Assembly (NCBI GenBank): GCA_015491245.1
Contig: WFWH01000027.1
Span: forward strand, 1 to 60,155
DNA from: Patescibacteria group bacterium
Lineage (GTDB): Bacteria; Patescibacteriota; Minisyncoccia; Phycocordibacterales; UBA12088
Direction of reading: 5' to 3'
DNA: 60,155 bases
The notes under the pieces are model-generated. The model saw nothing but the letters and a program-made list of their open reading frames with translations. It searched no databases and was not told where the DNA came from. The position numbers and the translations under genes were made by a program. This document shows, piece by piece, positions 9,766-51,198 of this stretch; within the stretch, counting starts at the first letter, position 1; the number at the start of each line of letters is the position of its first letter.

Positions 9766-12324
9766 ATGGCGCACGAGGCACCTCACCCCTCCCGCAAGGA
9801 GCACGCCGAAACCCCTTTGGGACCCGAAACGCACCCTGCACACCCTGCGGCGGCATCCTCCGGTATGGATCTCGCGCCGCGCCATCGCGCCCCTCTGGAG
9901 GCATTTGCCGAAACTGGGGATGTGAGCGTGCTCACGGAAGAGACAGCGCGCGCGGCGGGTGGCGCAGTATATGCCGCATGGAGGGAGCACAAAGAAGGCG
10001 CTCAGGAAAAACCGCAGCCGCCGCAGGGTGACCCTTTTTCGGTTCCCGCCGCGCTCTTGGAGGATGCGGGCATTCCGTTGGATTTTGTGTCGCGCTACCG
10101 CGAGGCGCCGCGAGAGACCCTGCGCACGCTCTACCGCCTCGCCGCGGCTCCCGTTGCGGGATTGCCCGAAGACCGGCGCGAGGAAGTGCGCATGGCGCGC
10201 GAGTGCGCCCTCTCCTGCATGGCGCACCTGGCACTCGAGGACCCGCACGCGGTGCGGGAGATGTTTGCGGCACTTGCGGTGCATGAGGCGTACGGCATGC
10301 GCGAGGTAGACGCGCTGCGCACGGTGTACCAAAAAATATTTTGGGAGTGCGCACGCGCGTGCAACCCGGATTTTCCGGATGAGCCGCCGTCGCCACGCGC
10401 GGCGCAATCCCTTCCGCCCCGCGCCGCCGATCTGTCGCGCGCATTTCTCGCGTTTGAGGAAGCGGCGCGTGCCATCACCGAGGGCGATCACGCATGGGAC
10501 GTTGCGGCAAACTACCTTGCCGTGCAGGCACTGAAAGAATTCGCCCGCGGGATACCCGATGCCGCGTCAGAAGATTTTTTTGACCTTTTTAATGCGGGGG
10601 TGGAAATAAACCTAGAAAATTTCTTTTCCCTGTGCCAATGGGGCGGCGCCGCTTTTTCCCACATTGATTGCGACCTGCATGCTCCGTTCCGTGTGAATAA
10701 AGAATATTGGGGGGTGTGGTCTTCCGATCTTTCTCACTTGTACGTACTTCCGGCCGCAGACGGAAAAAAAACGGGCAATGAGTATCTTGATGCGCTGGAC
10801 CGCGACGCGCGCTTGCTCCGCATGCTGCTTCTGTTTGATGTGTGTGAGGTATGCATGGATCCTAAGTGCCAAGAGCGCCGCGTAATCCCAGACGTGTTTG
10901 AAGAAACCGCAAATACGGACATCGATACACTCTTGGAAGAGATGAGGAAAGCGGGCGATCCGCTTGATAACGCGCGGCAGTTTGGCGAACGCACCCCGGA
11001 GGAGCTCCAGGACTTTATGACGTTCCATCGCGCGCACTTTCGCGAGGGCGTGGAGCGCGACCTCAATATCTCGCTTGAAGCGCTCAGCATTGAGGAGCAG
11101 TTTTACTTTCTTGACTACGCCAAAACCGTGCCGTGGGGCGAAGCGGAGCGATTTAAGCAATTCGTCAGAACCTACGGCATAGACGGGGCGCGCACCTTCC
11201 TTTCCCTGCGTGAAGACAAGGGGAGGGGGAGCGTTATCTTGGAGCTCGGCACTGCACTGCTGCGGGAAGAGGAAGCGCGGCGGCTCTTTGCGCAATATGC
11301 CGAACTCGTCGCAGCGTCGGAGCGCGCGGGCGAGGTGGTACGGCGCGCATTCGCCCATACGCGGCCGCGCGAGGCGTGCGGCACCGCGTGCCAGGCGCGC
11401 ATTGATGCGCTCGCCACAAAATTGCGCGCGTTTGCGTCTTCGCTCCTGCTCACGATCTACGCCAACGCTGTGTTGTACCAAAGTTGGAAAGGTGCGGTGG
11501 GGGTTCCCACAGCGCAGGCGCTGGAGGAGCTGGAAGACGTCTGCGGTACCTCCCTCTTGCTCGCCGAGGTATTCCGCCATGGTGCGTGCGAGGGAGCGCT
11601 CACACCCGAAGACCTCGGCGCTTCTTTTCGGCGCCTGCAGGGCCCCGCACTGGTGCGGGAAAAGCCCCACTGGGTGGAAAAAATGCGCGCGCTCATTGCG
11701 AAGAACTATGCGCACGAGCGCGCAGCGTTTCGCGCGGCAGTACTGCGGGGGTGGGAAAACGCACTTGCCTCAGAGGAGAGTGTCTTTTTCGTATTGGAAT
11801 TTGAAGACCGCATCATCGCCTTTGACCGGTTTGATTTCATGCGCGATGAGGAAGGGGCGCCAACCGGGCTCTATTTTGGTTCTTTTAACGTGGATACTAC
11901 CAATGCGCGCGGCGCACGCCTGGGCAGTTCCCTGTTGTCGGTGTCGCTGGGCTGGGCGAGAGAAGAGGCGGCGCGCAGGAAGGTTCCCCTTATCGCTCAC
12001 TGCGATCCCTACGCATTCATCACCGAAAAGTATCTGCGGGAGGGCTTTGCCGCGGTAGCGCGCGAGGATGTTGCCGGAAAGCCCAGCTGGCGCATTGCGT
12101 ATGATCCCGCCCGGCCCTGGAAGAGCAAACAGCTCTCGGAACAGGAGTTGGAGCATCATGCCGACGCGGAACGCGAGGAGAAAAACATCGCGGTATGGCG
12201 CCTGCCGGCCGGTGCGCCGCTCCCCCTGGCGCGTATAGATGCGCATTTGGCGCAGGGTATGGCGCTCACGCGCATTGTGCGCAACAGCGAGGGGGAGCGC
12301 CTGGTGGTGCTGGAGCGCCGCTAG
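9766..12324 (+). CDS. Large hypothetical protein (852 aa) with a possible C-terminal GNAT-like acetyltransferase fold
   Basis: Long ORF with ordinary composition. The C-terminal segment FVLEFEDRIIAFDRFDF...NARGARLGSSLLSVSLGWAREEA resembles the GNAT acetyl-CoA loop (R/Q-x-x-G-x-G/A). The rest is unrecognised. Confidence 0.6.
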   Translation: MAHEAPHPSRKEHAETPLGPETHPAHPAAASSGMDLAPRHRAPLEAFAETGDVSVLTEETARAAGGAVYAAWREHKEGAQEKPQPPQGDPFSVPAALLEDAGIPLDFVSRYREAPRETLRTLYRLAAAPVAGLPEDRREEVRMARECALSCMAHLALEDPHAVREMFAALAVHEAYGMREVDALRTVYQKIFWECARACNPDFPDEPPSPRAAQSLPPRAADLSRAFLAFEEAARAITEGDHAWDVAANYLAVQALKEFARGIPDAASEDFFDLFNAGVEINLENFFSLCQWGGAAFSHIDCDLHAPFRVNKEYWGVWSSDLSHLYVLPAADGKKTGNEYLDALDRDARLLRMLLLFDVCEVCMDPKCQERRVIPDVFEETANTDIDTLLEEMRKAGDPLDNARQFGERTPEELQDFMTFHRAHFREGVERDLNISLEALSIEEQFYFLDYAKTVPWGEAERFKQFVRTYGIDGARTFLSLREDKGRGSVILELGTALLREEEARRLFAQYAELVAASERAGEVVRRAFAHTRPREACGTACQARIDALATKLRAFASSLLLTIYANAVLYQSWKGAVGVPTAQALEELEDVCGTSLLLAEVFRHGACEGALTPEDLGASFRRLQGPALVREKPHWVEKMRALIAKNYAHERAAFRAAVLRGWENALASEESVFFVLEFEDRIIAFDRFDFMRDEEGAPTGLYFGSFNVDTTNARGARLGSSLLSVSLGWAREEAARRKVPLIAHCDPYAFITEKYLREGFAAVAREDVAGKPSWRIAYDPARPWKSKQLSEQELEHHADAEREEKNIAVWRLPAGAPLPLARIDAHLAQGMALTRIVRNSEGERLVVLERR

Positions 12325-13133
12325 CGCGCGGCGGCTCCTTCTTGCGCCGCGGTGCCGCCCTCGGAGAGCGGCACCGCGGCTTGCTCCCACATGACCTCAA
12401 AAAGCGCGCGATGCATGCGTGTGAGCGAGGGGTCCTCTATGATGATGCCGATGAGCTGCGCGGCGCCCAAGGTGAGGTAGGAGGTGGTGGCGTCATACAT
12501 TTGCATCACGGTATTGAACGCTTCCGGTGCGCCGCGCCACTTGATGACGCGCGTTTCGGTAATGCCCTCGGGGTAGTTCGCCAAAAAGCGCCGCGCAAAC
12601 GCCGAATCGGGGACGATGCCGCGCTTTTTAACCCCGCGCCGCTCTCGGCGCCGCACGTACTCGCGGTTGAGCGCGGGAATGTGCGTTTCAATGGCTTCCA
12701 AATCGGCGAACGAGTAAATGGTTTCCCGTGCGGAAAGCGAGTGCTCCAGCACCTCGCGCGCACCCTCTTTCCCCTCATAGAAGCGCACGCCCGGTTTGCC
12801 GCGCAAAAGGTTGTAGGCGCTGAAGAGCCGCGGGAGTGCCGCCATTGCCGCGCGGTACCGCGCTTCTTCCTGCGCGCGCGCTTTTTCCGCGAGTGCGGCG
12901 AGGCGCACGGGCGAGAGGGGGTGGAAGATTGCCACCTTGCCTTGCGGTTCCTCCTTTTTCACCAAGTGCAGCGCCTGGAGCTCTCCCAGTATTTTGTAGG
13001 CGTGCGTGCGTGCCAGGCCGGTGCGCGCGGCAATATCGCGCGCGCGCCCGGGGCCGCGGGCGAGCAGTGCCTCATACACCGCGCTCTGTTCGGCGGTGAG
13101 GGGTGGAAATGCGTCAGTGGGCGTGCGGGGCAT
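12321..13133 (-). CDS. TrmB-like winged-helix transcriptional regulator
   Basis: N-terminal wHTH LTAEQSAVYEALLARGPGRARDIAARTGLARTHAYKILGELQALHLVKK plus a C-terminal domain of TrmB-family size. It is divergent from the island promoter. Confidence 0.65.
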   Translation of the reverse strand: MPRTPTDAFPPLTAEQSAVYEALLARGPGRARDIAARTGLARTHAYKILGELQALHLVKKEEPQGKVAIFHPLSPVRLAALAEKARAQEEARYRAAMAALPRLFSAYNLLRGKPGVRFYEGKEGAREVLEHSLSARETIYSFADLEAIETHIPALNREYVRRRERRGVKKRGIVPDSAFARRFLANYPEGITETRVIKWRGAPEAFNTVMQMYDATTSYLTLGAAQLIGIIIEDPSLTRMHRALFEVMWEQAAVPLSEGGTAAQEGAAAR

Positions 13134-13145
13134 ACGAATATGTTA

Positions 13146-13173
13146 AGGATATATTGTTTTTGTCACGTGTCAA
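13146..13173 (-). promoter_or_regulatory. Possible promoter of the TrmB-like gene (TTGACA, 16 nt, TATCCT), near-leaderless
   Basis: The reverse complement of 13168-13173 is TTGACA and of 13146-13151 is TATCCT. The start codon lies at 13133-13131, so the 5' UTR would be only a few nt. Confidence 0.35.
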
Positions 13174-13259
13174 TGACAATTATGTGGATATATAAAAAGC
13201 TTTTTGAAAAGTTTTTGAGCCATTTTTATGTTTCAATAACTTTTATTGTACAAAAATAT

Positions 13260-13288
13260 TTGACAAAACACACGCATTTATGTATACT
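13260..13288 (+). promoter_or_regulatory. Sigma70-type promoter (TTGACA, 17 nt, TATACT) heading the island
   Basis: TTGACA at 13260-13265, a 17-nt spacer, TATACT at 13283-13288. It sits in the AT-rich divergent region. Confidence 0.6.
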
Positions 13289-13295
13289 TCTGCGC

Positions 13296-13863
13296 AGTTG
13301 ATGCAGTGGTGGATGCCTTGAGCGGCATGCCACCGCGCTTCTGAAAAACGGCAAAAAAGTTCCTTTTTCGCCATGGCACTACTTGCTACGCAAGTGGGCA
13401 CCTGTGCCGGAGGGGATGCCAAGAGGGCATTGCCTCCGGACCGGTGCCTGTTTGAGGACCGCCGCGCCGCAGGGTGCGTGCGCGCGCGGCAGTGAGCGTC
13501 GGGCGGCAGGAAGCACACTCCATGACTTTTTGCGATAACCGCATGCTTGCGGGTGTGTTCCTTGCGCCTTGTGCTTCTCCGCACCGCACGCTCGCTGCGG
13601 GATGCGCCGTGCACCTTTATGCACGCGCTGCGCCTATGCAGGACCGCCGCAGTTCTTTGACAGGTGCACTTCCTTGATCGCACTCCCGGCCCCCTTTTTT
13701 CAGGCTGCGGGGAGGGAATGTGCCGCGCGGGAGAGTCACCTCTGCCCGCCCGAGCAGCGCGCGTGCGCTTTTCGGGCGGGCAGAGGGTCTGCCCGCCCCT
13801 GCGCGCGGGGATGGCGCGCACTAACCGAGAGGCCGCCGCGCGGCAACGCGCGGCGGAACGGAA
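13296..13863 (+). ncRNA. ~570-nt GC-rich structured untranslated RNA (long 5' leader or independent ncRNA); family unknown
   Basis: No credible ORF. Many nested hairpins (13308-13334, 13407-13439). A 15-bp stem pairs 13739-13753 with 13772-13786, and its 3' arm can alternatively pair with 13788-13798. A 9-bp hairpin at 13833-13856 ends 8 nt before ATG 13864. Confidence 0.4.
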
Positions 13864-14310
13864 ATGGGCTACTCGTTGGTAAAAGGATCGCGCGGCAAAG
13901 CGCCGCGCTTCGCGATTTACGTGGGCTTGCGTGCGGGCTACGGCCCGAACGCAAAGACCCACACCCGCGACGAGGTGGTCGAGCTGGTGCTCAACCACCT
14001 CAAAAGGAAAGCCGCGTCCGGCGAGGAGTACCTCACCGGCATCGTCGATGACGGTGATGCCGAGGCGGTATACGCCTGGCCCGAGGGGCCGGGCAAGGCG
14101 GGGGGTGGCCACGAGCCACAGGTCACGTACAGCGGGAACGTCAACCCGCTGTACAACGCCTCGATGAGTCGCGAGGCCATCGAGGCATTCCTCAACGACC
14201 TCGCCGCCGAACTCGGCGAGGCCCTCGAGCAAACGAGGGTCTACGTGGAATTCGCGGGGGAGCAGTGGATCCTCCAAAAGGAGGGTTCCGAGACTCCGAC
14301 CGGCGAATGA
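13864..14310 (+). CDS. Island gene 1: hypothetical protein (148 aa)
   Basis: Balanced composition (PRFAIYVGLRAGYG, EAVYAWPEG, SREAIEAFLNDLAAELGEALEQTRVYVEFAGEQWILQ). Followed by two hairpins. No family recognised. Confidence 0.6.
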   Translation: MGYSLVKGSRGKAPRFAIYVGLRAGYGPNAKTHTRDEVVELVLNHLKRKAASGEEYLTGIVDDGDAEAVYAWPEGPGKAGGGHEPQVTYSGNVNPLYNASMSREAIEAFLNDLAAELGEALEQTRVYVEFAGEQWILQKEGSETPTGE

Positions 14311-14317
14311 TTCTTTT

Positions 14318-14398
14318 GCGGGCGGCGGCTTAAGCTGCCGCCTGCAAAAGACTCCTGCTGTTTTCGGCAAGGGGGGCGCCCCCCTTGCCGCTTTTATT
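14318..14398 (+). terminator. Two hairpins after gene 1; the second has a U-tract
   Basis: 14318-14345 is a 12-bp stem (two G-U) with a TTAA loop. 14365-14390 (cggcaagggggg/ccccccttgccg) is followed by CTTTTATT. Confidence 0.65.
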
Positions 14399-14572
14399 GA
14401 GCCGGCAATCGTGATTGCCGACTCATTGAGGTCTTTGAAATATCCATGCGTTAGCACCGCGGCCCTCACGAGCGGGTTCACCAGACTAATTGAGCTGATA
14501 GCCACTTCGTGAGGGCTGCATGGTGCGGCCCTGGTAATCGCCGGCCTACGGCGAAGCGGAAGGAGGAACGAG

Positions 14573-15166
14573 ATGAAAAAAATCGTTCTCGCCGGTCCGC
14601 CTCGGTCCGGCAAGAGTTGTTTGCGCGAGGGGCTGAAACAGGCCCTTCGCGCGATCCCGGGTGCGCCGTATCCGTACGTGATTACGGCATGCCCGGACGG
14701 AGAGGGGTCGTGGTTCCAGGAAACTGTGAACCGCGACCCGGAGCTCGCCGCGGCGTGCAAGGCCGCCTACAAGGCGAGCTTCACCCCGGAGTTCGTTCGC
14801 CGGGTGGCGGAGAGCGTACGCAAGTGCACGCTCCCGCTCACCCTGGTGGACATCGGTGGAATTCCGTCCGAGGAGAACAGGGTCATATGCAAAGATGCTA
14901 CCCACATTGTTCTCCTCGCCGGCAACGATCCTAAAACGGGGACACCGTGGAAGGATCGCCTGCCGGAGTGGCGGGAATTCGCCAAGGGGTTGGGGCTTGC
15001 CGTGGTGGCGGAGATCTTCTCCGACTACCACGGCAAGGAGGACGCCGTCTTGGGTGTGGGGTCCGACGGCGTTCTCCGCGGCTCGGTTCACTACCTTGAG
15101 AGGGGTGAGCCGGTCGCCGAGCGCCCGATGATTCGGGCGCTCGCCGAACACCTGCTCCAGCTCTAA
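14573..15166 (+). CDS. Island gene 2: small P-loop NTPase (197 aa), paralogous to the N-terminus of gene 4
   Basis: AGGAGG at 14561-14566. Walker A is GPPRSGKS and the Walker B-like strand is LTLVDIGG. It shares the motifs ACPDGEGSW, HIVLLAG, DGVLRGSVHYLERGEPVA with 15931..16480. Confidence 0.7.
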   Translation: MKKIVLAGPPRSGKSCLREGLKQALRAIPGAPYPYVITACPDGEGSWFQETVNRDPELAAACKAAYKASFTPEFVRRVAESVRKCTLPLTLVDIGGIPSEENRVICKDATHIVLLAGNDPKTGTPWKDRLPEWREFAKGLGLAVVAEIFSDYHGKEDAVLGVGSDGVLRGSVHYLERGEPVAERPMIRALAEHLLQL

Positions 15167-15314
15167 CACCGGGCCCGCTTCGGCCGTGAGTGGGGATCCG
15201 CGCGAAAACCATGCGCGCGGGAGGGACCCACAGAGCTGGGAGTGATCACCTGCTCCCAAAAATCTGAAACCCACGAGCCGACGGTGAAGCTCGCAAATCA
15301 GATGGGAGGCCATC

Positions 15315-15656
15315 ATGGCCTATTACAACATCTCTCCCACTCCCGCCATCGTCGCCGGCACGCCGGCGACCCTGTTCCGGGTCGGCTTCGGGGAGCCGGC
15401 CCAGAACGATAAGATTGTTCAGGCCGCCGAGGATCGCCTCGCCGAGTTCGCCGAGCTCGGGGGGGAGCTCGCCCTCATCAACGGGCCGGCTTCGCTGCCG
15501 GTGGCCGTGGTGCTCGCGCACCACATCGTCCACCGGTTCGCGGCCGTAGGGGTTTTCGACCCCAAGATGGCCGCGTATGTCGTCGCGGCCGCCCACGGCG
15601 GGCGGTACTCGGTCGGGGACGTAATCCCCGCCGAGACCGTCACCGAGGCGGCCTGA
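15315..15656 (+). CDS. Island gene 3: Csx3/Crn3-like protein (113 aa)
   Basis: The core LALINGPASLPVAVVLAHHIVHRFAAVGVFDPKMAAYVVAAAHGGRYSVGDVI resembles the Csx3 core as I recall it from A. fulgidus (GVVISGRGPIWLHCFLAHKYHHTPFVAVYDPRLGAVVV...GDVI). Similar size and a GGGAGG SD. Confidence 0.55.
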   Translation: MAYYNISPTPAIVAGTPATLFRVGFGEPAQNDKIVQAAEDRLAEFAELGGELALINGPASLPVAVVLAHHIVHRFAAVGVFDPKMAAYVVAAAHGGRYSVGDVIPAETVTEAA

Positions 15657-15813
15657 CGGCCTGAATCATTGGCTCGCCACCGATGAGTAACAGTTCTCCG
15701 AGTGGCGCTCGGAGTTGCGGTAAAAATCCTTCCGCGTAAAAGTATGGATGCGAGTTGATACCCGGGGAAGGGGCTCGCGAAAATAAAAACCCACAACCCC
15801 GGGGCCGTTTTTC

Positions 15814-15849
15814 GCGGGAGCCGCTAGGTTCCGGCTCCCGCTATCTTTT
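15814..15849 (+). terminator. Hairpin plus U-tract after gene 3
   Basis: gcgggagccg/cggctcccgc forms a 10-bp stem (15814-15841), followed by TATCTTTT. Confidence 0.55.
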
Positions 15850-15886
15850 GAGAACGCAAACATCGTTTGTGTTCTCAAAGAGATAG
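15841..15886. repeat. 46-nt near-perfect palindrome upstream of gene 4
   Basis: ctatcttttgagaac gcaaacatcgtttgt gttctcaaagagatag. The outer arms are complementary with one bulge, and the inner caaac/gtttg segments also pair. Confidence 0.6.
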
Positions 15887-15930
15887 TGTTCCTTAGTTTT
15901 GTTGCCGCCATGCGGCGGCAAGGAGGTGAG

Positions 15931-17628
15931 ATGAGAAAGGTGATTGTGTGCGGGCCGCCGCACAGCGGCAAGTCCGTCTTCTTGAGCAACCTCCAGCGGC
16001 TGCTCCCAACCGAGCATCATATGTTGATTTTCGGTGCTCCCGACGGGGAGTGGCACTGGAGTAATGAAGCGGACCAAAAACTCGTCCGCGAACTTCGCGC
16101 CAAGAAGGAGTTCACGGATGAGTGGTGCGACGGCATCCTTGCCGCTATCGCCAGCGTCGAGCAGCGGCTGGTGCTGGTGGATACGGGCGGCAAGCGGCTC
16201 CCGCCGAACGACCGGATATTCCAGTCGTGCGACGCTTTTATCGTCCTCTCTTCTTCTCCGGAAGAGAGGGAGGAATGGCGCCGCTACGGCGAGCGATTCG
16301 GATGCCGGTGCATCGCCGAGCTTGACTCGGTTCTGCACGGCGAATGCGAGCTCTATCCGCTCGCAGACGACGGCATCATTCGCGGGAGGATCACGGGGCT
16401 TGAGCGCGGGAAGACCGTTGCGTCTCCCGTGCTGGAGGCGGTTGCCGAGCGGCTTCGGAAGGTCATTGCGGCGAATGCCGAGATGACTGAAGCCGAGCTT
16501 CTCGCCAACATCAACGGCGCGAAGCTGGTTGACCACCTGGGTATTTCGGATCGCGATGATCCATACCTGGGTGTGCGCCCGTGGCACACCGCACCGGCGC
16601 TCAGGGTGGCGCGGGCGGCGCGGAAGTTGGAGGTCGTGCGGATATGGAACGTCCGCGCGAGCTTCCTGTCGTCCGCGTTTGCGGCGGCGCTCCCCGGCAG
16701 AGTGGAGCTCTTCGGCGTCTCCGAAGGGTATGTCCGCCTGCCGGAGGTGGCGCCGCGCGGCGACGGCGCGGGCAACCTTGAGTGGGAGATCACGGAGCTT
16801 CCGGACTTCACGGTCGTGGAGTATCGGAAGAACGGATTTTTCGCAAAGGAAATGCTCGCGGAGGTCGCCCCGCCGGCGGTCAGCGCCCGCAAGGGCGTGG
16901 TGCTGGCAACGGACGGCCCGCCGATCTGGCTGGACGCCACGATTGCACGAGCGTACGCCCGCGCGGGCATCCCGTGGATCGGGATGTTCGTGCCCGTGGA
17001 ATCCGGGCGCGCGCAGCCGTCGCTCGGCGGCCACCCGTGGGGCGAAGCATATCCCAAGGACGGGCCGTGCGTCGTCGTCCACGGCCCGGAGGAGCGGCTC
17101 GGGGAAGTGTTCCCTGTGCCGATCTCCATCCTCAAGTGGAACGGCGGCGGCCGGCAGTGGCGGCTTGGCTCGGGGGAGGTTGTGAAGGACCGGCCCAATA
17201 GCCATGTCGCCACACACACGACAGTCCTCCCCCTCCTTGCCGATGCTCTCTCGCGAGTATCGGCGCGCGGCCGTGCGTTCATCACCGAGGAGGTGCGTTT
17301 CAACCATATCGTCGGAGAGACGATATGCGTTGAGACAAAGCCGGGCGATGAAATCGTCTATGCGCGGCGGCCGAATCGCGCGGGGCTTACGCGGTTTGTC
17401 AAAAACCGCGCACCCGAGCCGTGCGACACGGTCACCGTATGCCTCAAGCGCGCCAAGGAGGGGCATTACACCCTCCTTACCGCGTTTGTGGGGCACCGCG
17501 CACCGGCCGAGCCGTGGGACAAAAGGTGGGTGACCGAGGAGTCGCGTGCTTTTTGGGCAACTCATGCGCTCGTATGGGGGCGCGAGGAGGTGGTACCGGG
17601 GACGGAGACCACCGTCTGTCCCTGGTAA
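15931..17628 (+). CDS. Island gene 4: fusion of P-loop NTPase, Csx3-like domain and an unknown C-terminal domain (565 aa)
   Basis: AGGAGG at 15921-15926 then ATG 15931. N-terminus MRKVIVCGPPHSGKS with LVLVDTGG. Middle segment LEWEITELPDFTVVEYRK...ARKGVVLATDGPPIWLDATIARAYARAGIPWIGMFVP...CVVVH is Csx3-like. The C-terminal ~170 aa (GETICVETKPGDEIVYARR, HYTLLTAFVGHRAPAEPWD, WATHALVW) are unrecognised. Confidence 0.65.
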   Translation: MRKVIVCGPPHSGKSVFLSNLQRLLPTEHHMLIFGAPDGEWHWSNEADQKLVRELRAKKEFTDEWCDGILAAIASVEQRLVLVDTGGKRLPPNDRIFQSCDAFIVLSSSPEEREEWRRYGERFGCRCIAELDSVLHGECELYPLADDGIIRGRITGLERGKTVASPVLEAVAERLRKVIAANAEMTEAELLANINGAKLVDHLGISDRDDPYLGVRPWHTAPALRVARAARKLEVVRIWNVRASFLSSAFAAALPGRVELFGVSEGYVRLPEVAPRGDGAGNLEWEITELPDFTVVEYRKNGFFAKEMLAEVAPPAVSARKGVVLATDGPPIWLDATIARAYARAGIPWIGMFVPVESGRAQPSLGGHPWGEAYPKDGPCVVVHGPEERLGEVFPVPISILKWNGGGRQWRLGSGEVVKDRPNSHVATHTTVLPLLADALSRVSARGRAFITEEVRFNHIVGETICVETKPGDEIVYARRPNRAGLTRFVKNRAPEPCDTVTVCLKRAKEGHYTLLTAFVGHRAPAEPWDKRWVTEESRAFWATHALVWGREEVVPGTETTVCPW

Positions 17629-17635
17629 AGCTTGT

Positions 17636-17674
17636 GTGCGTACGGAAGCCGTAGCTTCCGTACGCACCTTTATT
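17636..17674 (+). terminator. Intrinsic terminator after gene 4
   Basis: A 14-bp perfect stem gtgcgtacggaagc/gcttccgtacgcac with a CGTA loop, followed by CTTTATT. Confidence 0.7.
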
Positions 17675-17730
17675 CCGTGCATGACTGCAGTCGTGCACGG
17701 ATAGAGGTTCTTTGAAAGGAGGAGAAAAAC

Positions 17731-18267
17731 ATGGGTACCGCCCATCCAAAAATATCACGCGCCCGGCAGTTTGCCAGGCGTGTGCACAACAGGCAGATGC
17801 GCCTTGATGGAGAGTCGCAGTTCGCGCATTGCGAGCGGGTCGCCACCATCGTCATCGGCCTACTGGCGGAATTTCATCACCCCGTCCGCGATGACGAGGT
17901 GGTGGAGGATGTGGTCGCCGCCGCGCTCCTCCACGATACGTTGGAGGACACCGAGACCACCGACGAGGAGCTTGCCGGGCACTTCGGCGAGCGGGTGGCG
18001 CGCATTGTCCGCGCTGTGAGCCACGAGCAGGAAGAGGAGCCCGATGAGGTTTACCTCTCTCGTGTGGCTGCCGGCGGTCGGGAGGCGCTTCTGGTGAAGC
18101 TCGCCGACCGGCTGGACAATACGCGCACGCTCGTGCGGGCGCCGCGCGAATTTCGTGAGCGCAAGCTCGCCGAGATACGCGCAGCGCTGCCCATCTGGGA
18201 GCGTATGTTCCTGGAGAGTGTGCCGCTGATCAGGAAAGCGATCAAGGAGGTGGAAGATGCCTCGTAG
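17731..18267 (+). CDS. Island gene 5: SpoT/RelA-type HD hydrolase, small alarmone hydrolase (SAH)-like
   Basis: AAGGAGG SD. VHNRQMRLDGESQFAHCERVA and AALLHDTLEDT...FGERVARIVRAVS match the (p)ppGpp-hydrolase HD signature (H..Q.R, HD, ED). At 178 aa there is no synthetase domain. Confidence 0.8.
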   Translation: MGTAHPKISRARQFARRVHNRQMRLDGESQFAHCERVATIVIGLLAEFHHPVRDDEVVEDVVAAALLHDTLEDTETTDEELAGHFGERVARIVRAVSHEQEEEPDEVYLSRVAAGGREALLVKLADRLDNTRTLVRAPREFRERKLAEIRAALPIWERMFLESVPLIRKAIKEVEDAS

Positions 18268-18296
18268 ATCGCTTTCAGAGCTTCGTCTGCGCGCCG

Positions 18297-18545
18297 GTGC
18301 GGCTCTTCAGGTTGCACCGGAGCTCCGTAAGGAGGCTCGTGAGAATTGCGAGTGAGAAGTCACCTTCGGCGGCATTCTCGCTTGCCTCGCGCGCAGCACA
18401 GCTTCATGGCCACGCGGGCATGGACACTTTGGCGCTTGCCAAGGCGACCCGCTGGCTTGCCGTGATCCGACGGGATTACGGTGAAAAAGCGTTTTTGGGG
18501 ACCGTGGGGACGCCTGCGGCCATGAACCAAGGAGAAAATTCATGA
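18297..18545 (+). CDS. Island gene 6: small ORF translationally coupled to the AAA+ gene (start uncertain)
   Basis: The frame ends with TGA overlapping ATG 18542 (ATGA). An internal ATG would give MDTLALAKATRWLAVIRRDYGEKAFLG. No family recognised. Confidence 0.3.
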   Translation: MRLFRLHRSSVRRLVRIASEKSPSAAFSLASRAAQLHGHAGMDTLALAKATRWLAVIRRDYGEKAFLGTVGTPAAMNQGENS

Positions 18546-19768
18546 GCAACCCGCTTTCTCAGGCCACCGCGGTGGCCGGCAAGGTCAGGGCGATCACCGA
18601 CGAGGTGCTCGCCGAAAACATCGGGCGGGAGCAGATGGTGCATGCCGTCTGGCTCTCGCTCATCTCCGGCAACCCGGCGTTTTTCCTGGGCGAGCCGGGC
18701 CTTAACAAAACCGGCACCGTCCAGGCGCTTGCGCGCCGGATTGACGGGGCGGTCTTCTACGACGCCCTGATGCCGACCGTTGTGTCGGTGGAGCAGCTTC
18801 TTGTGGAGTCTACCTCCATTGAGGAGTCGCCGACCAGCTCGGGCGGTAAGGAAATTCGCGTGCGAGAGAAACTCGGCCGGGCGGCGAAGGCACACCTCGT
18901 CTTTGCCGACGAGATCTGGAAGGCGGAGCCGCGCGTGCTCCAGACGGTTCTGGATCTCGCCAAGGGCGACGGGGTGCGCCACGAGGGCGCGATGATCAAA
19001 ACGCCGCTTATGGCGTTTATCGCCGCGTCCAACGAGTTGCCCGAGCCGGAGGGCAACCTTGGCGCGATGTGGTCGCGTATGACCATTCGCGCCGTGGTGG
19101 AGCCTTTGGGTGCTGGAGAGAAGCGCGCGTTTATCAAAGCGCGCCTTGCCCGCAAACGGCACGCGAGCTCCGGCGGCGCTCAGCCGGCACAGAAGCTCAC
19201 CTTGCAGGAGGTGGAGCTTCTGCGGCAGGCGCAGCCGCTCGTTGCCGTCCCCGACGACATCGTTGAGCAGGTGCTGGAGATTTACCAAGCCCTGCGAGAC
19301 AAGGACTCGGAGGGCTTTGACTGGCTATGGGCCGACGACCGGCGCTTTGGCCGTATCTTTGATGTCCTGCAGGCAAATGCCCTGCTGGACGGACGAGACA
19401 CGGTCAGCCGGCAGGACCTGTGGGTCCTGAATCTGCTCCTGTGGGATGACCCGGAGCAGATTCCGACGGTCGTGGAGACCGTCGCGCCGTACTGCCGGAC
19501 GCCGCTCTCGGAGGCCGAGGAGCTCGTGGATGCGCTCTTTGTGCCCGATGGCCTCGTCGCGGAGGTCAAGGGCGGCAAGCGCGATCGCCTAGTAGAAGCG
19601 ATCACCCAGATTGAGGAGTGCGAGAAAGAGCTCGCGCGCCTCATGGGTGAGGCCTCTGGTACCGAGGCCGCTTCCATCGGCGACCTCCAGGCGAAGATTG
19701 CCGCCGAGAAGCAGGCGGTGGTCAGTGCTGCCTTGGGGACCAAATATACGGTCTCCAGTCGCAAATAA
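18542..19768 (+). CDS. Island gene 7: MoxR-class AAA+ ATPase, RavA-like
   Basis: Walker A GEPGLNKT, Walker B LVFADEIWKAEPRVLQTVL, IAASNELPE and DDRRFGRIFDVLQANALLDGRDTVSRQDLWVLNLLLW parallel E. coli RavA blocks (VFLDEIWKAGPAILNTLL, VAASNELPE, SDRRW...GR...DL). Confidence 0.85.
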   Translation: MSNPLSQATAVAGKVRAITDEVLAENIGREQMVHAVWLSLISGNPAFFLGEPGLNKTGTVQALARRIDGAVFYDALMPTVVSVEQLLVESTSIEESPTSSGGKEIRVREKLGRAAKAHLVFADEIWKAEPRVLQTVLDLAKGDGVRHEGAMIKTPLMAFIAASNELPEPEGNLGAMWSRMTIRAVVEPLGAGEKRAFIKARLARKRHASSGGAQPAQKLTLQEVELLRQAQPLVAVPDDIVEQVLEIYQALRDKDSEGFDWLWADDRRFGRIFDVLQANALLDGRDTVSRQDLWVLNLLLWDDPEQIPTVVETVAPYCRTPLSEAEELVDALFVPDGLVAEVKGGKRDRLVEAITQIEECEKELARLMGEASGTEAASIGDLQAKIAAEKQAVVSAALGTKYTVSSRK

Positions 19769-21651
19769 TGGAGGTCAAAATGGAAAATCCCAGTAAGCCG
19801 CCGCTTACGCGGCAGGAGCTCGGGCGCCTGCTGGTGTCGGATGCGGATGCCTTCACACAGCTCCGCTTCCTCCGGCACCGGGAGACAACCCCGGCGCTCC
19901 AGGAGCTCGAGCGGGCGGCGGAAGACCGCCTGCCGGGCTCGGTAGGCGCGCTCGCCGACCTCTACCACGCGCTCTGGTCTCCCGACCCAAAGCTCCTCCC
20001 GGAGGAGCAGGTCGGGACCGACCGGCGCGCGTGGCGTGCGATGCTCCAGGGCATGCTCGCCTCCTCAGCCTACGAGGCGGCGCATGCCCGGACGCGCCTC
20101 TCGGACCTCCGGTCGCTTATCGGGACCATTGAGCTCGGCAACGCCATTGCCGCGCAGGTATCCGAGGAGGATGCGGAGAAGCTACGGGAGCAGGCCGCGG
20201 CGCAGCGCGAGGCGGATGAGGCCAACGACAGGGCCGAGGAGGCCGAGTCGCAGGCGGATGCCGCCGAAGCGCTTGCACAGGCGGCCGCCGGGCAGGCGCA
20301 AGCCGGCTCCGGGCAAGGCGGCGACTCTCAGCCGGGTGAGCCGTCCGGCGAGGATGCGGGTGGTGAGCCGCAGGAGAGCTCGCAGGGGCAATCTGGCGAT
20401 TCGCTGGGTGCGTCCGGTATGCCGCAGTCCGGAGTCGGCACTCCCGCGGGTGGTGCAATGCCGCAGGCGGGAGCGCCGTCGAGGATGCCGCAGAGCGGCC
20501 GGCCCCAGAGGGGCGGTCGCGCAGAGGCGCACTCCGGCGGTGGCACCATCACGCCCGAAGAGGCCCAAGCGCTTGCCGATGAGCTCGCGAGGCAAGCCCA
20601 GGAGGCGCGCGCGAAGGCCGAGGCCGCGCGTGAGGAAGCCGAGCGCAAGCAGCAAGAAGCCGACCGGCTCGCCGAGGCGCTTCTGGGAGAGCCCGGGAGC
20701 GAGGAGGCGGCCGAGAAGCTCCAGGAGCTTGCGCGCATCGGCGCGGCGGCGATGCGCAAGGCCCAAAAGAAGGTGGAAGAGGTCTCCGAGACCTTGGAAG
20801 CCTGGGGCCTTGAGGAGGGTGAGCTCACCCGCGAGGGGATGCCTGAGGCGATGGGCATTCTGGAGCGGATGCAAAAGAGCGATGCCTTCAAAAAATTCGC
20901 ATCGCTCCTTGGCCGGATTCGTCGGATTGCCGCCCGTAAGGCGAAGTCCGACGAGAGAGTCGAGGGAGTTCGGGTATCAAAGCCCGAGCTCGGCCGCGAC
21001 ATTCGCCGGGCGGTGCCGGCGGAACTTGCCGCGCTTGCGACGCCTGTCACTCGACCCAAGACGCTTGTGCGTTGGGCACGGGGCGAGCTGCGCTTGCGCG
21101 GCGAGGAGGCAAAGCAGCGCCTCGGCGAGGGGCCGGTGGTGGTCTGCGAAGACTCTTCCGGCTCCATGGACGGAGCGAAGCGGCAGTGGGCGAAAGCGAC
21201 AACGCTCGCGCTTGCCCACTACGCCAAGCTCCGCAAGAGGTCGTTTGCGTGGATCATGTTTGATTCGCGCGTGCAGGCGGTTAAGGTCGTTGAGAAGGGC
21301 CGGCTGTCTGCGAAGGACCTTCTGGAGATCGCCGAGGTAAGCTCCGGCGGCGGCACCTCATTTGAAGCGCCGCTTGACCGCGCCCTTGAGGTGATTCGCG
21401 AGGAAGGCTTGAAAAAGGCCGACATCGCGTTTATCACCGATGGTGAGTGCGCGGTTGCCGACGAGTGGCTCAAGGAGTTTCTCGCTGCAAAGGAGAAGCT
21501 CCAGTTCAATGTCGTCAGTGTCCTGTGCGACGTGGGCGCCACAAGCGGCAGCACGGTAGAGAAATTCTCTGACCGTGTTGAGCGTGTCTCCTCGCTTGAC
21601 GAGGGGGATGCCGCCGCAGTCATCGGCCATATAGGAGGTGGTCATGGCTGA
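19768..21651 (+). CDS. Island gene 8: ViaA-like VWA-domain protein with a long low-complexity acidic/Gln/Gly linker
   Basis: The start overlaps the upstream stop (TAATG). The C-terminal VWA domain has the MIDAS motif VVVCEDSSGSMDG, then WAKATTLALAHYA, GGGTSFEAPLD, IAFITDGE. This is the layout of ViaA/CoxE-type partners of MoxR ATPases. Confidence 0.8.
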   Translation: MEVKMENPSKPPLTRQELGRLLVSDADAFTQLRFLRHRETTPALQELERAAEDRLPGSVGALADLYHALWSPDPKLLPEEQVGTDRRAWRAMLQGMLASSAYEAAHARTRLSDLRSLIGTIELGNAIAAQVSEEDAEKLREQAAAQREADEANDRAEEAESQADAAEALAQAAAGQAQAGSGQGGDSQPGEPSGEDAGGEPQESSQGQSGDSLGASGMPQSGVGTPAGGAMPQAGAPSRMPQSGRPQRGGRAEAHSGGGTITPEEAQALADELARQAQEARAKAEAAREEAERKQQEADRLAEALLGEPGSEEAAEKLQELARIGAAAMRKAQKKVEEVSETLEAWGLEEGELTREGMPEAMGILERMQKSDAFKKFASLLGRIRRIAARKAKSDERVEGVRVSKPELGRDIRRAVPAELAALATPVTRPKTLVRWARGELRLRGEEAKQRLGEGPVVVCEDSSGSMDGAKRQWAKATTLALAHYAKLRKRSFAWIMFDSRVQAVKVVEKGRLSAKDLLEIAEVSSGGGTSFEAPLDRALEVIREEGLKKADIAFITDGECAVADEWLKEFLAAKEKLQFNVVSVLCDVGATSGSTVEKFSDRVERVSSLDEGDAAAVIGHIGGGHG

Positions 21652-22267
21652 GGAGCTTATTGTCACCAAAATCGCCGAGCAAGGGAAGAAATTTGATGAA
21701 ACCGGACAGTGCATCACATCGCACGAGCGGTCCATTGTCTTTCTCCCTCGCGAGGCGAAGCCCGGCGAGCTCGTCCGTGTCCGCCTCATTCCCATCACCG
21801 ATCCGGAAGGGAATGAGAAAAAAGACCGCAACGGGCGTGTTATGTACCGTGCGGTCTGGGCGCCCGCGAGTCTTAGCCTCAAGCAGAGGATTGCGCAGGA
21901 GGCGCAGAGATTGCGCGCCTGCGCAGCTCTGCAGGGCAAAGCGGGAGAAGCGGCAGCGCGCACTCTTTTGGGTGCCGCCCCTCAGGGTGGTACCGGCTTT
22001 GACTGGTACTATTTTGAGGAAAGCGCGGCATACGCGTCACGCTTCTCCCCCTCTGCGCTGTTACTGCTCGAACATATCGAGCATGTGCAGGGCAGTGCGG
22101 AGGCGGAACTGCTCGCCTGGGTGGCGGATGGGGCGTACTACCGACGCCGCGCACGTGGGGAGCCAGTAGATTACTGGCAGTGCCCCGATCTATCCGCCGC
22201 CAGATTGGAGGCGTTGGGCAATGACTCACTGTTGTTGTCCCGACGCCTTGATGGGGAGGAATCGTGA
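21644..22267 (+). CDS. Island gene 9: hypothetical protein (207 aa), N-terminal small beta-barrel (TRAM/OB-like?)
   Basis: AGGAGG at 21633-21638. The ATG overlaps the VWA stop (ATGGCTGA). The N-terminus IVFLPREAKPGELVRVRLIPI is TRAM-like. The rest is unrecognised. Confidence 0.5.
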   Translation: MAEELIVTKIAEQGKKFDETGQCITSHERSIVFLPREAKPGELVRVRLIPITDPEGNEKKDRNGRVMYRAVWAPASLSLKQRIAQEAQRLRACAALQGKAGEAAARTLLGAAPQGGTGFDWYYFEESAAYASRFSPSALLLLEHIEHVQGSAEAELLAWVADGAYYRRRARGEPVDYWQCPDLSAARLEALGNDSLLLSRRLDGEES

Positions 22268-22299: not shown

Positions 22300-22368
22300 C
22301 GCCCGGCTGCGGAAGCAGCCGGGCGTTCCCCTCTCCACATGTTTCCGTGGAGAGGGGTTTTTTATTTT
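22300..22368 (+). terminator. Double terminator closing the island
   Basis: 22300-22325 is an 11-bp stem with a GGAA loop. 22328-22357 (cccctctccac/gtggagagggg) is followed by TTTTTTATTTT. Confidence 0.8.
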
Positions 22369-49285: not shown

Positions 49286-50134
49286 ATGAAAAAGTACCGA
49301 CCCACCACACCCTCGCGCCGGCACATGACCGGCATCAACTACCGTGAAAAGCTTTCCGGTGCGAAAAAGCCCCACAAAGCGCTGACGCGGGGCGGAAAGC
49401 AGGCGCACGGGCGCAACGCTCACGGCCGTATCACCACGCGCCACAAGGGCGGCGGGCACAAGCGCCGCTACCGCTTGGTGGATTTCAAAATGGATAAGCG
49501 CGATATTCCGGCAAAGGTGGAGAGCATTGAGTATGACCCGTATCGCTCCGCTTTTATCGCGCTGGTGTGCTATGCCGACGGGGAGCGCCGCTACATTTTG
49601 GCGGGGAGGGAAACTAAAGTGGGCGACACCTTTCTCGTGAGCGAGCAGGCGCCCGTCAAACCGGGCAACCGTTTGCCGCTTGCGCGCATGCCAGTGGGCA
49701 CGTTTGTCTACAATATTGAAACGCGCCCCGGCGCGGGCGGCGTGCTAGTGCGGAGCGCCGGCATGCACGCGGAGGTGGTGGCGCAGGATGCGGGCTACAC
49801 CCAGCTCAAGATGCCCTCTTCCGAAATGCGAAAAGTTTTCTCCGGCGCGTGGGCTACCGTGGGTGAGGTGTCCAACGAGGAGCATCGCCTCGTGACCATC
49901 GGCAAAGCGGGCCGCGCGCGCTGGCTCTCGCGGCGCCCCGTGGTGCGCGGTAGCGCGATGAATCCGGTAGACCACCCCTACGGCGGCGGTGAGGGACGCG
50001 CACCGCGCGGCACGCGCCGTGCCAAAACCAAGTGGGGCAAGCCCGCAGGCAAGGGGCAAAAAACGCGCCGACCCAAAAAATACTCCAACAAACTCATTGT
50101 TGCCCGCAGAAAGGTAGGCAAGAAACGCGGCTAA
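49286..50134 (+). CDS. rplB: 50S ribosomal protein L2
   Basis: GRNAHGRITTRHKGGGHKRRYRLVDF, and GSAMNPVDHPYGGGEGR. Confidence 0.96.
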   Translation: MKKYRPTTPSRRHMTGINYREKLSGAKKPHKALTRGGKQAHGRNAHGRITTRHKGGGHKRRYRLVDFKMDKRDIPAKVESIEYDPYRSAFIALVCYADGERRYILAGRETKVGDTFLVSEQAPVKPGNRLPLARMPVGTFVYNIETRPGAGGVLVRSAGMHAEVVAQDAGYTQLKMPSSEMRKVFSGAWATVGEVSNEEHRLVTIGKAGRARWLSRRPVVRGSAMNPVDHPYGGGEGRAPRGTRRAKTKWGKPAGKGQKTRRPKKYSNKLIVARRKVGKKRG

Positions 50135-50280
50135 ATGTGTCGCGTCATTGCCGCGCACTACGCGCGTTCTGGCTCAAGCATTCTCTGGAACACAGCGGGG
50201 CGTTCCCGTGCTCCCCGCGCGAGGGATTGCTGGGCGCTCTGAAGCGGGCTATCCTTTTTGCTAGAGGAAGGAATGGCTGG

Positions 50281-50407
50281 GGTGTCACAGCCTTTCCAGG
50301 GATGCCCAGCCGGAGCATCCTGGATAAAGCCTTCACCTCCCTCCTTGAGGGCACTTTGTGGCGCGAGGTGCCCGGTGCAAGGGAGGGAAAACCCCCGCTG
50401 TGACACC
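50281..50407 (+). ncRNA. Candidate structured RNA: three-way junction in the rplB 3' region; family unknown
   Basis: P1 is 11 bp (50281-50291 with 50397-50407). Hairpin A is 50296-50323 (9 bp plus a bulged G). Hairpin B is 50338-50388 (9 bp plus a bulged G, capped by the 6-bp gggcac/gtgccc). The local ORFs have junk composition. Confidence 0.35.
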
Positions 50408-50443
50408 GTGGGCCATGAACCGGGGGCAAGGGAAGGATCCGGC

Positions 50444-50470
50444 AGCGCCGCCCACGGTGTGGGCGGCGCT
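50444..50470 (+). terminator. Hairpin ending the rplB transcription unit
   Basis: agcgccgccc/gggcggcgct forms a 10-bp stem with a 7-nt loop, followed by CTTCATAAA. The U-tract is weak. Confidence 0.5.
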
Positions 50471-50498
50471 CTTCATAAAGGTAGTCCTCGGGTTATTG

Positions 50499-50527
50499 TT
50501 GACAACTTTCAATAAATGACGTATTAT
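50499..50527 (+). promoter_or_regulatory. Sigma70-type promoter (TTGACA, 17 nt, TATTAT) with no ORF behind it
   Basis: TTGACA at 50499-50504 and TATTAT at 50522-50527. The downstream ~270 nt are non-coding and hairpin-rich. Confidence 0.55.
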
Positions 50528-50802
50528 AAAATTGGATTTTCGGAAAGAGGCCGCGCGCGGCCGCCAGTTCTTTTGTGGCAATTAGTTAGTAGCTAGCACA
50601 CTTCTCATGGAGGAAGAAAGGATAGCGAGAAGTAATTCTGCCGGCGCACGCGCCGCAGGAACACCACCGCGCGCAAGGCTGCAGTAGGGGTTACTGCATA
50701 GCACTTGTGCGCGGAAGTGTCTCTGGGGTGTAAAGGTCAGTGGTGGCTTTGGCGCCACCACTGGGTGCCTCTTTGGTGTGCGCTGCGTGTGTTGGGCGCA
50801 AT

Positions 50803-50831
50803 TTGACATAAGGCACTTCTTTGCGTACACT
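50803..50831 (+). promoter_or_regulatory. Sigma70-type promoter (TTGACA, 17 nt, TACACT) re-starting the r-protein operon at rpsS
   Basis: TTGACA at 50803-50808 and TACACT at 50826-50831, about 30 nt before ATG 50863. Confidence 0.6.
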
Positions 50832-50862
50832 AGCCCTGCGCTTTTGTGGCGAATTTTTTATT

Positions 50863-51198
50863 ATGGCACGCAGTTTAAAAAAGGGCCCGTACGTTGACGA
50901 GCGCCTTTTGAAAAAAATCCAAGGGAAGAAGCCGCAGGAAACGGGGGTGATTAAAACGTGGGCGCGTGCCTCCATGATTTCCCCCGAAATGGTCGGATTT
51001 ACCTTTGGTGTCCACAACGGCAAACAGCACATTGAGGTCTTCGTCACAGAAGAGATGGTGGGGCACCGCTTGGGGGAATTCGCGCCTACCAAGAAATTTG
51101 TGCGCCACGGCGGCAAGATGCAAAAAGAGCTGGAGCAAAAGAAGCGCGAGGCAGAAATCGCCGCCGCCAAAGCGGCCAAAGCTGCTGCGGCGCGATAG
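50863..51198 (+). CDS. rpsS: 30S ribosomal protein S19 with an Ala/Lys-rich C-terminal tail
   Basis: [19 protein letters not shown]...[29 protein letters not shown]. Confidence 0.95.

Follow-up and report, generated by a model that had tools for sequence, protein, structure and literature searches.

The head of the island

We analyzed a 60,155-nt stretch of contig WFWH01000027.1 (assembly GCA_015491245.1; referred to below as the window), which comes from a high-GC metagenome-assembled genome (MAG) of the Candidate Phyla Radiation (CPR)/Patescibacteria. The window itself has a G+C content of ~61%. Our subject is a leader of ~570 nt without a credible open reading frame (ORF), located at the head of a gene island between a consensus promoter and the gene of a 148-amino acid (aa) protein, p148. 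An earlier sequence-only reading had described this leader as a hairpin-dense RNA with mutually exclusive pairings, directly upstream of the island. The features of the island and its head are as follows.

12321..13133, minus strand: gene of a TrmB-family helix-turn-helix regulator (Pfam TrmB, E 8.5e-10), start codon at 13133, divergent from the RNA
13160..13179, no strand: operator-like palindrome TTGTCA-N8-TGACAA in the divergent promoter region, read from the sequence
13260..13288, plus strand: sigma-70-type promoter TTGACA-17-TATACT (TTGACA 13260-13265, 17-nt spacer, TATACT 13283-13288)
13295..13863, plus strand: ORF-less structured leader or noncoding RNA (ncRNA), ~570 nt, its 5' end inferred from the promoter
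13864..14310, plus strand: p148, a conserved 148-aa CPR protein with an S-adenosylmethionine (SAM) lyase/SAM-AMP lyase fold according to AlphaFold2 and Foldseek
14365..14390, plus strand: terminator-like hairpin after p148, 11 bp and then CTTTTATTGA
14573-15166: P-loop "AAA" protein
15315-15656: Csx3
15931-17628: 565-aa P-loop-Csx3 fusion
17731-18267: SpoT/RelA-type HD protein
18542-19768 and 19768-21651: pair of MoxR (RavA-like) and VWA (ViaA-like) proteins

The regulator gene and the leader are separated by a 150-nt AT-rich stretch with divergent promoter-like sites. The consensus promoter claimed in the sequence-only reading is present; it matches the consensus at 11 of 12 positions, and no other site as good was found in the region of 13-23 kb. 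Loci were fetched around homologues of p148 and of the P-loop-Csx3 protein, and 57 related loci (designated by L numbers) were compared. At the equivalent place, TTGACA-17-TAnnnT occurs in L003, L011, L013, L015, L040, L045, L047, L051, L052 and L054 (TTGACT in L054). Homologues of the TrmB-like protein with 36-44% identity occupy the same divergent position in L003, L011, L013, L015, L040 and L045, and an upstream divergent gene stands in the equivalent spot in L047 and L054 too, the latter being a Pfam TrmB match. The palindrome TTGTCA-N8-TGACAA is found exactly beside the trmB-like gene in the window, in L003 (5744-5763), in L013 (3892-3911) and in L047 (751-770), with near-copies in L040 and L045. 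The operator/promoter region is also the sole intergenic part with DNA similarity to another locus (a short match in L040). The palindrome is probably the operator of the TrmB-like regulator.

The ~575 nt between the promoter and the ATG of p148 at 13864 are rich in G+C and lie on the strand of the island genes, directly upstream of them, as had been described; only one other non-coding stretch in the 60 kb rivals them in length. Codon-usage log-odds, trained on the genes of the window, were <=0 in all six frames over 13290-13800 and turned positive solely in the p148 frame, from ~13800. Translations of the leader ORFs matched no Pfam family and no ORF of the syntenic loci. These three tests bear out the claim that no believable ORF lies downstream of the promoter, and a pseudogene or small-protein gene in the leader was accordingly rejected; a conserved small protein, the competing possibility raised in the sequence-only reading, was looked for by the same means and not found. 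On the minus strand, a 505-codon open frame (13243-14760) spans the leader, p148 and the next intergenic region in antisense. It was rejected as a gene, being arginine-rich and without coding signal; long ORFs are no proof of genes in the G+C-rich DNA of this window.

Predicted fold of the leader and its controls

The fold predicted for the leader contains the following elements, all on the plus strand.

13303..13338: 5' hairpin of 14 bp, GCAGUGGUGGAUGCC / GGCAUGCCACCGCGC (centroid, mean pair probability 0.98)
13398..13447: 20-bp hairpin (centroid, mean probability 0.95)
13448..13663: central domain, closed by a 16-bp long-range helix (13448-66 / 13645-63)
13734..13790: dominant hairpin, 15 bp perfect and 24 bp extended (-46.7 kcal/mol, pair probabilities 0.99-1.00)
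13774..13798: alternative 11-bp hairpin reusing the 3' arm of the dominant hairpin (-24.2 kcal/mol, equilibrium probability 0.00)
13800..13820: 7-bp GC hairpin (mean probability 0.96)
13833..13856: 10-bp GC hairpin, 13833-42 / 13847-56 (probability 1.00), ending 7 nt before ATG 13864

In the dominant hairpin, cctctgcccgcccga (13739-13753) pairs perfectly over 15 bp with tcgggcgggcagagg (13772-13786), in agreement with the sequence-only reading, and the arms extend to 22 nt at 91%. Every other perfect hairpin in the 60 kb is shorter, and none of 500 dinucleotide shuffles of the leader region reached a 15-bp perfect stem. The alternative partner for the 3' arm likewise exists in the sequence: tctgcccgccc (TCTGCCCGCCC) occurs twice, at 13741-51 and 13788-98, and the second copy pairs 11/11 with 13774-84 over a GGG loop. 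Upstream, at 13499-13511, lies TCGGGCGGCAGGA, a third near-copy of the dominant hairpin's 3' arm. Within the central domain, CTTTGACA occupies 13655-62 and an imperfect tandem of 20 nt occupies 13463-13514. The hairpin beside the start codon is present as proposed, but it has 10 bp rather than 9 and ends 7 rather than 8 nt before the ATG. Its 3' arm does overlap a Shine-Dalgarno (SD)-like sequence, GGCGGAA/GGAA, with bases 13857-58 unpaired, but this SD is weak. According to the predicted structure, the hairpin may limit p148 translation through the overlap. No strong intrinsic terminator was found before ATG 13864, and the single terminator-like match, at 13548-13566, is weak.

The minimum free energy of the leader is -320 kcal/mol, corresponding to z = -6.9 on the plus strand. 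The reverse strand gives a nearly equal z = -6.7; the plus-strand fold is 15 kcal/mol more stable and contains 16 G-U pairs versus 8, which in the folding model is a mild argument for a plus-strand RNA. As a genome-context control, z-scores were calculated for 575-nt segments across the whole 60 kb (n = 76). The mean z was -2.6, and the leader ranked 11th of 76. Island coding DNA (14.4-22.2 kb) reached z of -7 to -12, equal to or beyond the leader, and folding alone is therefore no proof of RNA function. The description of the leader as hairpin-dense thus holds for its z-score but not as a mark of distinction: hairpin density does not set apart an ORF-less stretch in this genome. Against dinucleotide shuffles, coding DNA at 14401-22175 and a second region at 55201-56575 gave z of -7 to -12.8, and several 11-bp perfect hairpins lie within the P-loop "AAA" gene at 14573-15166 (AAA197). 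A strong codon bias for G+C at third positions is one candidate cause of such well-folding coding DNA. Across the 60 kb, parts of the leader recurred only as GC-rich 10-15-mers expected by chance, and no spaced repeat array was found in it; Tandem Repeats Finder gave just a 20-nt x 2.8 imperfect tandem.

A structured RNA family in the syntenic slot

The related loci share a recurrent head, consisting of a divergent trmB-like gene, an AT-rich region with TTGACA-17-TAnnnT, a long ORF-less stretch and then the island genes. In CPR loci, this slot is occupied by an ORF-less RNA of 0.3-0.9 kb.

L045: RNA of 735 nt (z -6.8), then a 117-aa gene, p148, P-loop-Csx3, HD, MoxR, VWA
L040: RNA of ~790 nt, then Csx3
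L047: RNA of ~810 nt, then island genes; NusA/Tig/T2SSE neighbourhood shared with the window
L011: RNA of ~790 nt, then island genes
L013: RNA of ~530 nt, then island genes
L020: RNA of ~680 nt, then island genes
L051: RNA of ~870 nt, then p148
L052: RNA of ~280 nt, then p148
L054: RNA of ~300 nt, split by a HicAB insertion, 3' part duplicated
L022, L053, L030, L024: partial RNA copies

We classified these RNAs into subfamily A (L040, L011, L013, L020, L022, L051, L052 and L054) and subfamily B (L045, L047 and L053). Profile searches with nhmmer link the members of subfamily A at E 1e-31 to 2e-3 and L045 with L047 at E 1e-41, and the A profile reaches L047 at E 3e-4. Shared blocks occur in the same order in both subfamilies: first AGUUCAUUGAGG, close to the 5' end, then GAGGAGAGAGG, the CUAACC-loop hairpin and CUUUGAnAA. 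RNAalifold applied to four subfamily A sequences predicted 85 pairs, 31 of them compensated. In a 20-bp helix, UGUURUUCCUCUUCGCC/GGnAAGAGGGRUCGCA, double changes affect 8 of the 20 pairs; the two arms are 97.5% paired, versus at most 57.5% when the partner is slid, and none of 500 shuffles reached that value. The CUAACC hairpin (GACAUCG...CUAACC...AAAUGUC) has compensated changes in 12 of 18 pairs across A and B. The compact forms of 280-300 nt (L052 and L054) keep the UUUGACAAU-AAUAGCGAAG block and the 20-bp helix. A distance of 60-260 nt separates the first start codon from the family core, in which conserved blocks are single-stranded and an AUAGCG motif is repeated. The first gene after the RNA varies, encoding p148, Csx3, or proteins of 117, 367 or 128 aa.

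The sequence-only reading had recognized no known RNA family, and the Rfam search that it called for agreed with this. Using cmscan with Rfam 15 at gathering thresholds, we obtained zero matches across the whole window, including none to OLE, ROOL, GOLLD, raiA, HEARO, riboswitches, RNase P, transfer-messenger RNA (tmRNA), SRP or 6S; relaxing the threshold to E up to 10 over 13100-14400 gave just noise-level microRNA/small-RNA matches. ARAGORN predicted no tRNA or tmRNA in the window. Rfam scans of 11 related loci returned nothing except tRNAs in L003. Taken together, the alignments indicate that the related loci carry a genuine structured RNA family uncatalogued by Rfam 15, its novelty being judged from Rfam 15 alone.

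Several local features of these loci were also recorded. In L054 (3358-3660 and 4190-4310), the RNA is interrupted by an inserted HicA/HicB toxin-antitoxin pair, beyond which a duplicate of the 3' part (the long helix and tail) immediately precedes the first island gene. One hairpin of subfamily B (L045 5447-5470, L047 1627-1650, L053 about 155-195) combines the invariant loop UGAUGCAUA with a covarying stem (GGGCGG/CCGCCC, GGGGGC/GCCCCC, GGUUGG/CCAACC); the palindrome AUGCAU in this loop raises the possibility of a kissing-loop dimerization site. The conserved CTTTGACAAT block was considered as an internal promoter and rejected, as no member has a -10 element at 16-18 nt. An intergenic element after the first genes is conserved among L040, L011 and L057 (…CUCCUACUUUUUGAGC…). 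In the viral database IMG/VR, a pattern scan for the hairpin of the window gave 0 matches, and pattern matches to the family core at 18 loci were discarded as chance, none being confirmed by the covariance models R2 (A core, in which the UUUGACAAU-AAUAGCGAAG block precedes the 20-bp helix) or R3 (CUAACC hairpin, 18 pairs).

The window RNA agrees with the family in its position, with the same promoter type, divergent trmB-like gene and TTGTCA-N8-TGACAA palindrome, and in its context, being ORF-less, on the same strand and upstream of p148, Csx3/P-loop, HD, MoxR and VWA genes. Its length and fold stability are comparable to those of subfamilies A and B. In contrast, it differs from both in lacking the CUAACC hairpin, the AAUAGCGAAG block, the GAGGAGAGAG motifs and the UGAUGCAUA loop; the AUAGCG motif is absent as well. 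Some further resemblances are weak or post hoc: AGTTGATGCAGTGG directly follows the -10 element where the family has AGTTCATTGAGG; CTTTGACA at 13655 stands ~75 nt upstream of a long CCUCU...AGAGG helix, as in the family; the 15-bp hairpin is where model R2 matches best; and three terminal hairpins are present as in subfamily B. A CTTTGAHA motif is conserved in the related RNAs, and the chance expectation of one in the window stretch is ~0.02-0.05; CTTTGACA is, however, predicted to be paired in the window and single-stranded in the family.

A number of results weigh against placing the window RNA in the family and, more broadly, against a functional RNA in the window. Even with the E threshold relaxed to 1000, the nhmmer profiles of A and B found no match in the 737 nt searched. 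The top match of R2 was the 15-bp hairpin at 13739-86, with 6-7 bits and E 0.2-0.3 on both strands; the weakly scoring alignment covers CCUCU-GCC...GGC-AGAGG. R3, run with filters off over 13100-14000, matched best at the 20-bp hairpin 13398-13447, non-significantly (7.9 bits, E 0.13) and over the inner stem only, without the loop motif, compared with 54-74 bits for true members. Searches of the leader against the 57 loci by blastn and nhmmer retrieved only the identical copies in L001 and L002 plus the short L040 match over the operator/promoter, and nothing else was alignable. The nearest relatives found for the island genes have ~72% protein identity (AAA-Csx3 search), and a word-index search with the TrmB protein gave one match at 40%; at this distance, the covariation evidence comes from the related loci and not from the stems of the window itself. 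Because loci were collected through p148, the co-occurrence of the RNA with p148 is in part built into the sample; its association with the TrmB-like gene and with Csx3/HD/MoxR/VWA is not. L003 and L015 share the regulator and promoter, but their leaders are short or unrelated (~150 nt in L003; ~430 nt in L015, including a terminator of its own), and the slot is therefore evolutionarily plastic. The strong folding of the island coding DNA counts on the same side.

Based on these comparisons, the window RNA would be an orthologue of the family that has diverged strongly and shifted in GC content, or else a lineage-specific RNA that has taken the place of the family RNA in this slot. The idea of a large-ncRNA class, raised in the sequence-only reading, is thus supported for the related loci, which carry a structured RNA of 0.3-0.9 kb at this place, but relatedness of the window copy to it was not detected. 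Elsewhere in the window, a 730-nt ORF-less insertion (50135-50864) separates rplB (49286-50134) from rpsS (ATG 50865) in the ribosomal-protein operon. It contains promoter-like sites (TTGACA 50499; TTGACA 50803 ... TACACT 50831) and overlapping GC hairpins at 50403-50470, and model R3 gives a weak match to its hairpin at 50656-50727 (18.6 bits, E 4e-4 locally and 0.13 globally).

Function of the leader and comparison with known RNAs

We favor, with middling confidence, the interpretation that the stretch is a structured 5' leader of the island operon transcript that functions at the RNA level. That the island begins with a large RNA not yet catalogued is a reasonable idea, because the syntenic loci carry a covarying RNA in that slot. 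In such a leader, a TrmB-like protein bound at 13160-13179 would control the promoter, and transcription would start near 13295. The first 570 nt are predicted to fold co-transcriptionally into stable local hairpins and one long-range domain. The leader would be continuous with the p148 mRNA, the sole terminator-like match (13548-66) being weak, and would act at the RNA level on island expression. The last hairpin, beside the weak SD, would keep translation of the potentially harmful SAM-lyase-like p148 low. The most likely mode, judged from the family sequences, is that of a protein-binding regulatory leader. A protein-binding leader or a ribonucleoprotein component is preferred over a small-molecule switch on one ribosome binding site because the first gene is variable and 60-260 nt away, and because the RNA has single-stranded blocks and AUAGCG repeats.

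A less probable explanation is a stand-alone large ncRNA, comparable to OLE, ROOL, GOLLD or Y RNA, which would act in trans as a scaffold, sensor or substrate of the island proteins. Its size of 0.3-0.9 kb would fit, the conserved core is modular in the relatives and exists in compact 280-300 nt forms (L052, L054), and subfamily B has the hairpin with the conserved palindromic loop. The core stands 60-260 nt from the first start codon, and the first downstream gene varies, which speaks against control of one particular ribosome binding site. However, there is no terminator or conserved 3' end before the first gene in the window, L045, L051 or L054, no sign of processing was seen, and the window copy has no conserved block at a significant level.

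We assign a similarly low probability to the absence of any RNA-level function, in which case rapidly evolving, GC-rich spacer DNA or a decayed remnant would make up the stretch, and its hairpins would stem from palindrome-rich composition and local duplications (such as TCTGCCCGCCC and the tandem at 13463-13514). The neighboring coding DNA, with its z of -7 to -12 and the 11-bp perfect hairpins of the AAA197 gene, is in line with this, as are the orphan status of the window RNA among the 57 related loci, the direct repeats and tandem that suggest slippage, and the ~150-nt leader with which L003 manages. On the other hand, CPR genomes are compact, yet the leader is among the two longest non-coding stretches of the 60 kb; it bears no trace of a decayed gene, its 15-bp perfect stem (24 bp extended) is beyond any shuffle and the longest in the window, and the relatives hold a conserved, covarying RNA in the slot.

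The sequence-only reading had compared the competing pairings with attenuators and riboswitch expression platforms, in which a ligand or factor would choose between 13739-53/13772-86 and 13774-84/13788-98 and thereby set read-through or translation of the island. We consider this improbable. The mutually exclusive pairings do exist in the sequence, TCGGGCGGCAGGA is in principle able to sequester the dominant hairpin's 5' arm, and the downstream enzymes act on nucleotide- or SAM-type molecules that would be candidate ligands. Nevertheless, the dominant hairpin at -46.7 kcal/mol faces an alternative of -24.2 kcal/mol, or -31.5 kcal/mol with a small inner stem, and the pairing probability of the alternative in the ensemble is 0.00. 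The co-transcriptional order also favors the long hairpin. No U-tract follows either hairpin, and the SD is in neither of them. No Rfam aptamer matched, all SAM classes included, and the arrangement is absent from the related RNAs, where the counterpart helix has no competing copy. Because the alternative is ~15-22 kcal/mol weaker and there is no U-tract, the attenuator interpretation is unsupported.

A DNA-level element (an island boundary or recombination site, a cluster resembling repetitive extragenic palindromes or miniature inverted-repeat transposable elements, or a degenerate CRISPR array) is very improbable: inverted and direct repeats do lie at the edge of a variable island with Csx3 genes nearby, but the 60 kb hold no copies beyond chance GC-rich 10-15-mers, no spaced repeat array and no adjacent recombinase, the strand asymmetry of folding favors RNA, and the regulator and RNA slot belong to the conserved island head in the relatives.

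Of the genes that follow the leader, p148 is annotated merely as hypothetical, and its 35 homologues are all from CPR/Patescibacteria MAGs; an identical p148 occurs on a 208-kb metagenomic scaffold and one other contig. Its AlphaFold2 model has a predicted local distance difference test score of 93, and Foldseek matched it to 6zm9 (E 1.7e-5) and 9gab (E 2.3e-4); a p148 profile against PDB sequences gave E 0.03. The context of SAM-AMP lyase is confirmed by the literature (PMC12255297, PMC10600005). Together, p148, the Csx3 ring-nuclease domains and the SpoT-type HD protein give the island the appearance of an enzyme set for degrading second messengers. No CRISPR array was found in the window, and no paper connecting Csx3 to Patescibacteria turned up in our search, which covered the literature incompletely. 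Like p148, other island genes are followed by GC hairpins that resemble terminators and have short T-tails (15814-15841, 17636-17667, 22328-22357), and no second strong promoter was seen in the island.

Tentatively, the RNA divergent from the TrmB-like gene may represent a new large (0.3-0.9 kb) structured class, forming the RNA part (sensor, scaffold or decoy) of an undescribed Csx3/SAM-lyase-like/HD/P-loop/MoxR-VWA system, with the window RNA as a structurally equivalent, sequence-diverged orthologue. To our knowledge, few large structured RNAs of unknown function exist, and new biology has come from every new class. The present family is absent from Rfam 15, supported by covariation, and marks the head of a CPR-specific island, whose proteins resemble destroyers of immune second messengers (the cyclic tetra-adenylate (cA4) ring nuclease Csx3 and SAM-AMP lyase) beside MoxR-VWA ATPase pairs. 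If RNA-controlled or RNA-containing quenching of nucleotide signals proved true, it would be relevant to defense, counter-defense or host interaction, given the life of CPR bacteria on other cells. The practical value for the window itself is smaller: the analysis offers a concrete, testable transcript (13295-13863) and demonstrates that, in this genome, little can be concluded from hairpin richness alone.

Among known systems, SAM riboswitches and T-box leaders share with the window RNA a promoter-proximal structured leader upstream of metabolite- or nucleotide-handling genes, as well as competing pairings and a hairpin beside the SD. They differ in that the window RNA has no aptamer match and no terminator/antiterminator pair, its alternative fold is thermodynamically negligible, and it is 2-4x longer than typical leaders. 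Y RNAs occur in rsr-rtcBA RNA-repair operons with the divergent CARF-containing regulator RtcR. The likeness lies in an ncRNA within an operon beside a divergent regulator and in the CARF-related (Csx3) and VWA proteins of the locus. In contrast, the window has no tRNA-like module according to ARAGORN and no match to Ro/TROVE, RtcB or RtcR, and its RNA is much longer and located at the 5' end.

The comparison with OLE, ROOL, GOLLD and raiA, large bacterial ncRNAs in Rfam with unknown or newly emerging functions, concerns both the window and the family. Like these RNAs, the window RNA is several hundred nucleotides long, ORF-less and densely structured, and the RNAs of the related loci have conserved blocks, covarying helices and ties to a particular gene neighborhood. 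Beyond the lack of a cmscan match at E up to 10, the island RNA differs from them in being physically a 5' leader without its own terminator, in being confined, as sampled, to CPR bacteria, and in its very variable length (0.28-0.87 kb) with domains that can be dropped.

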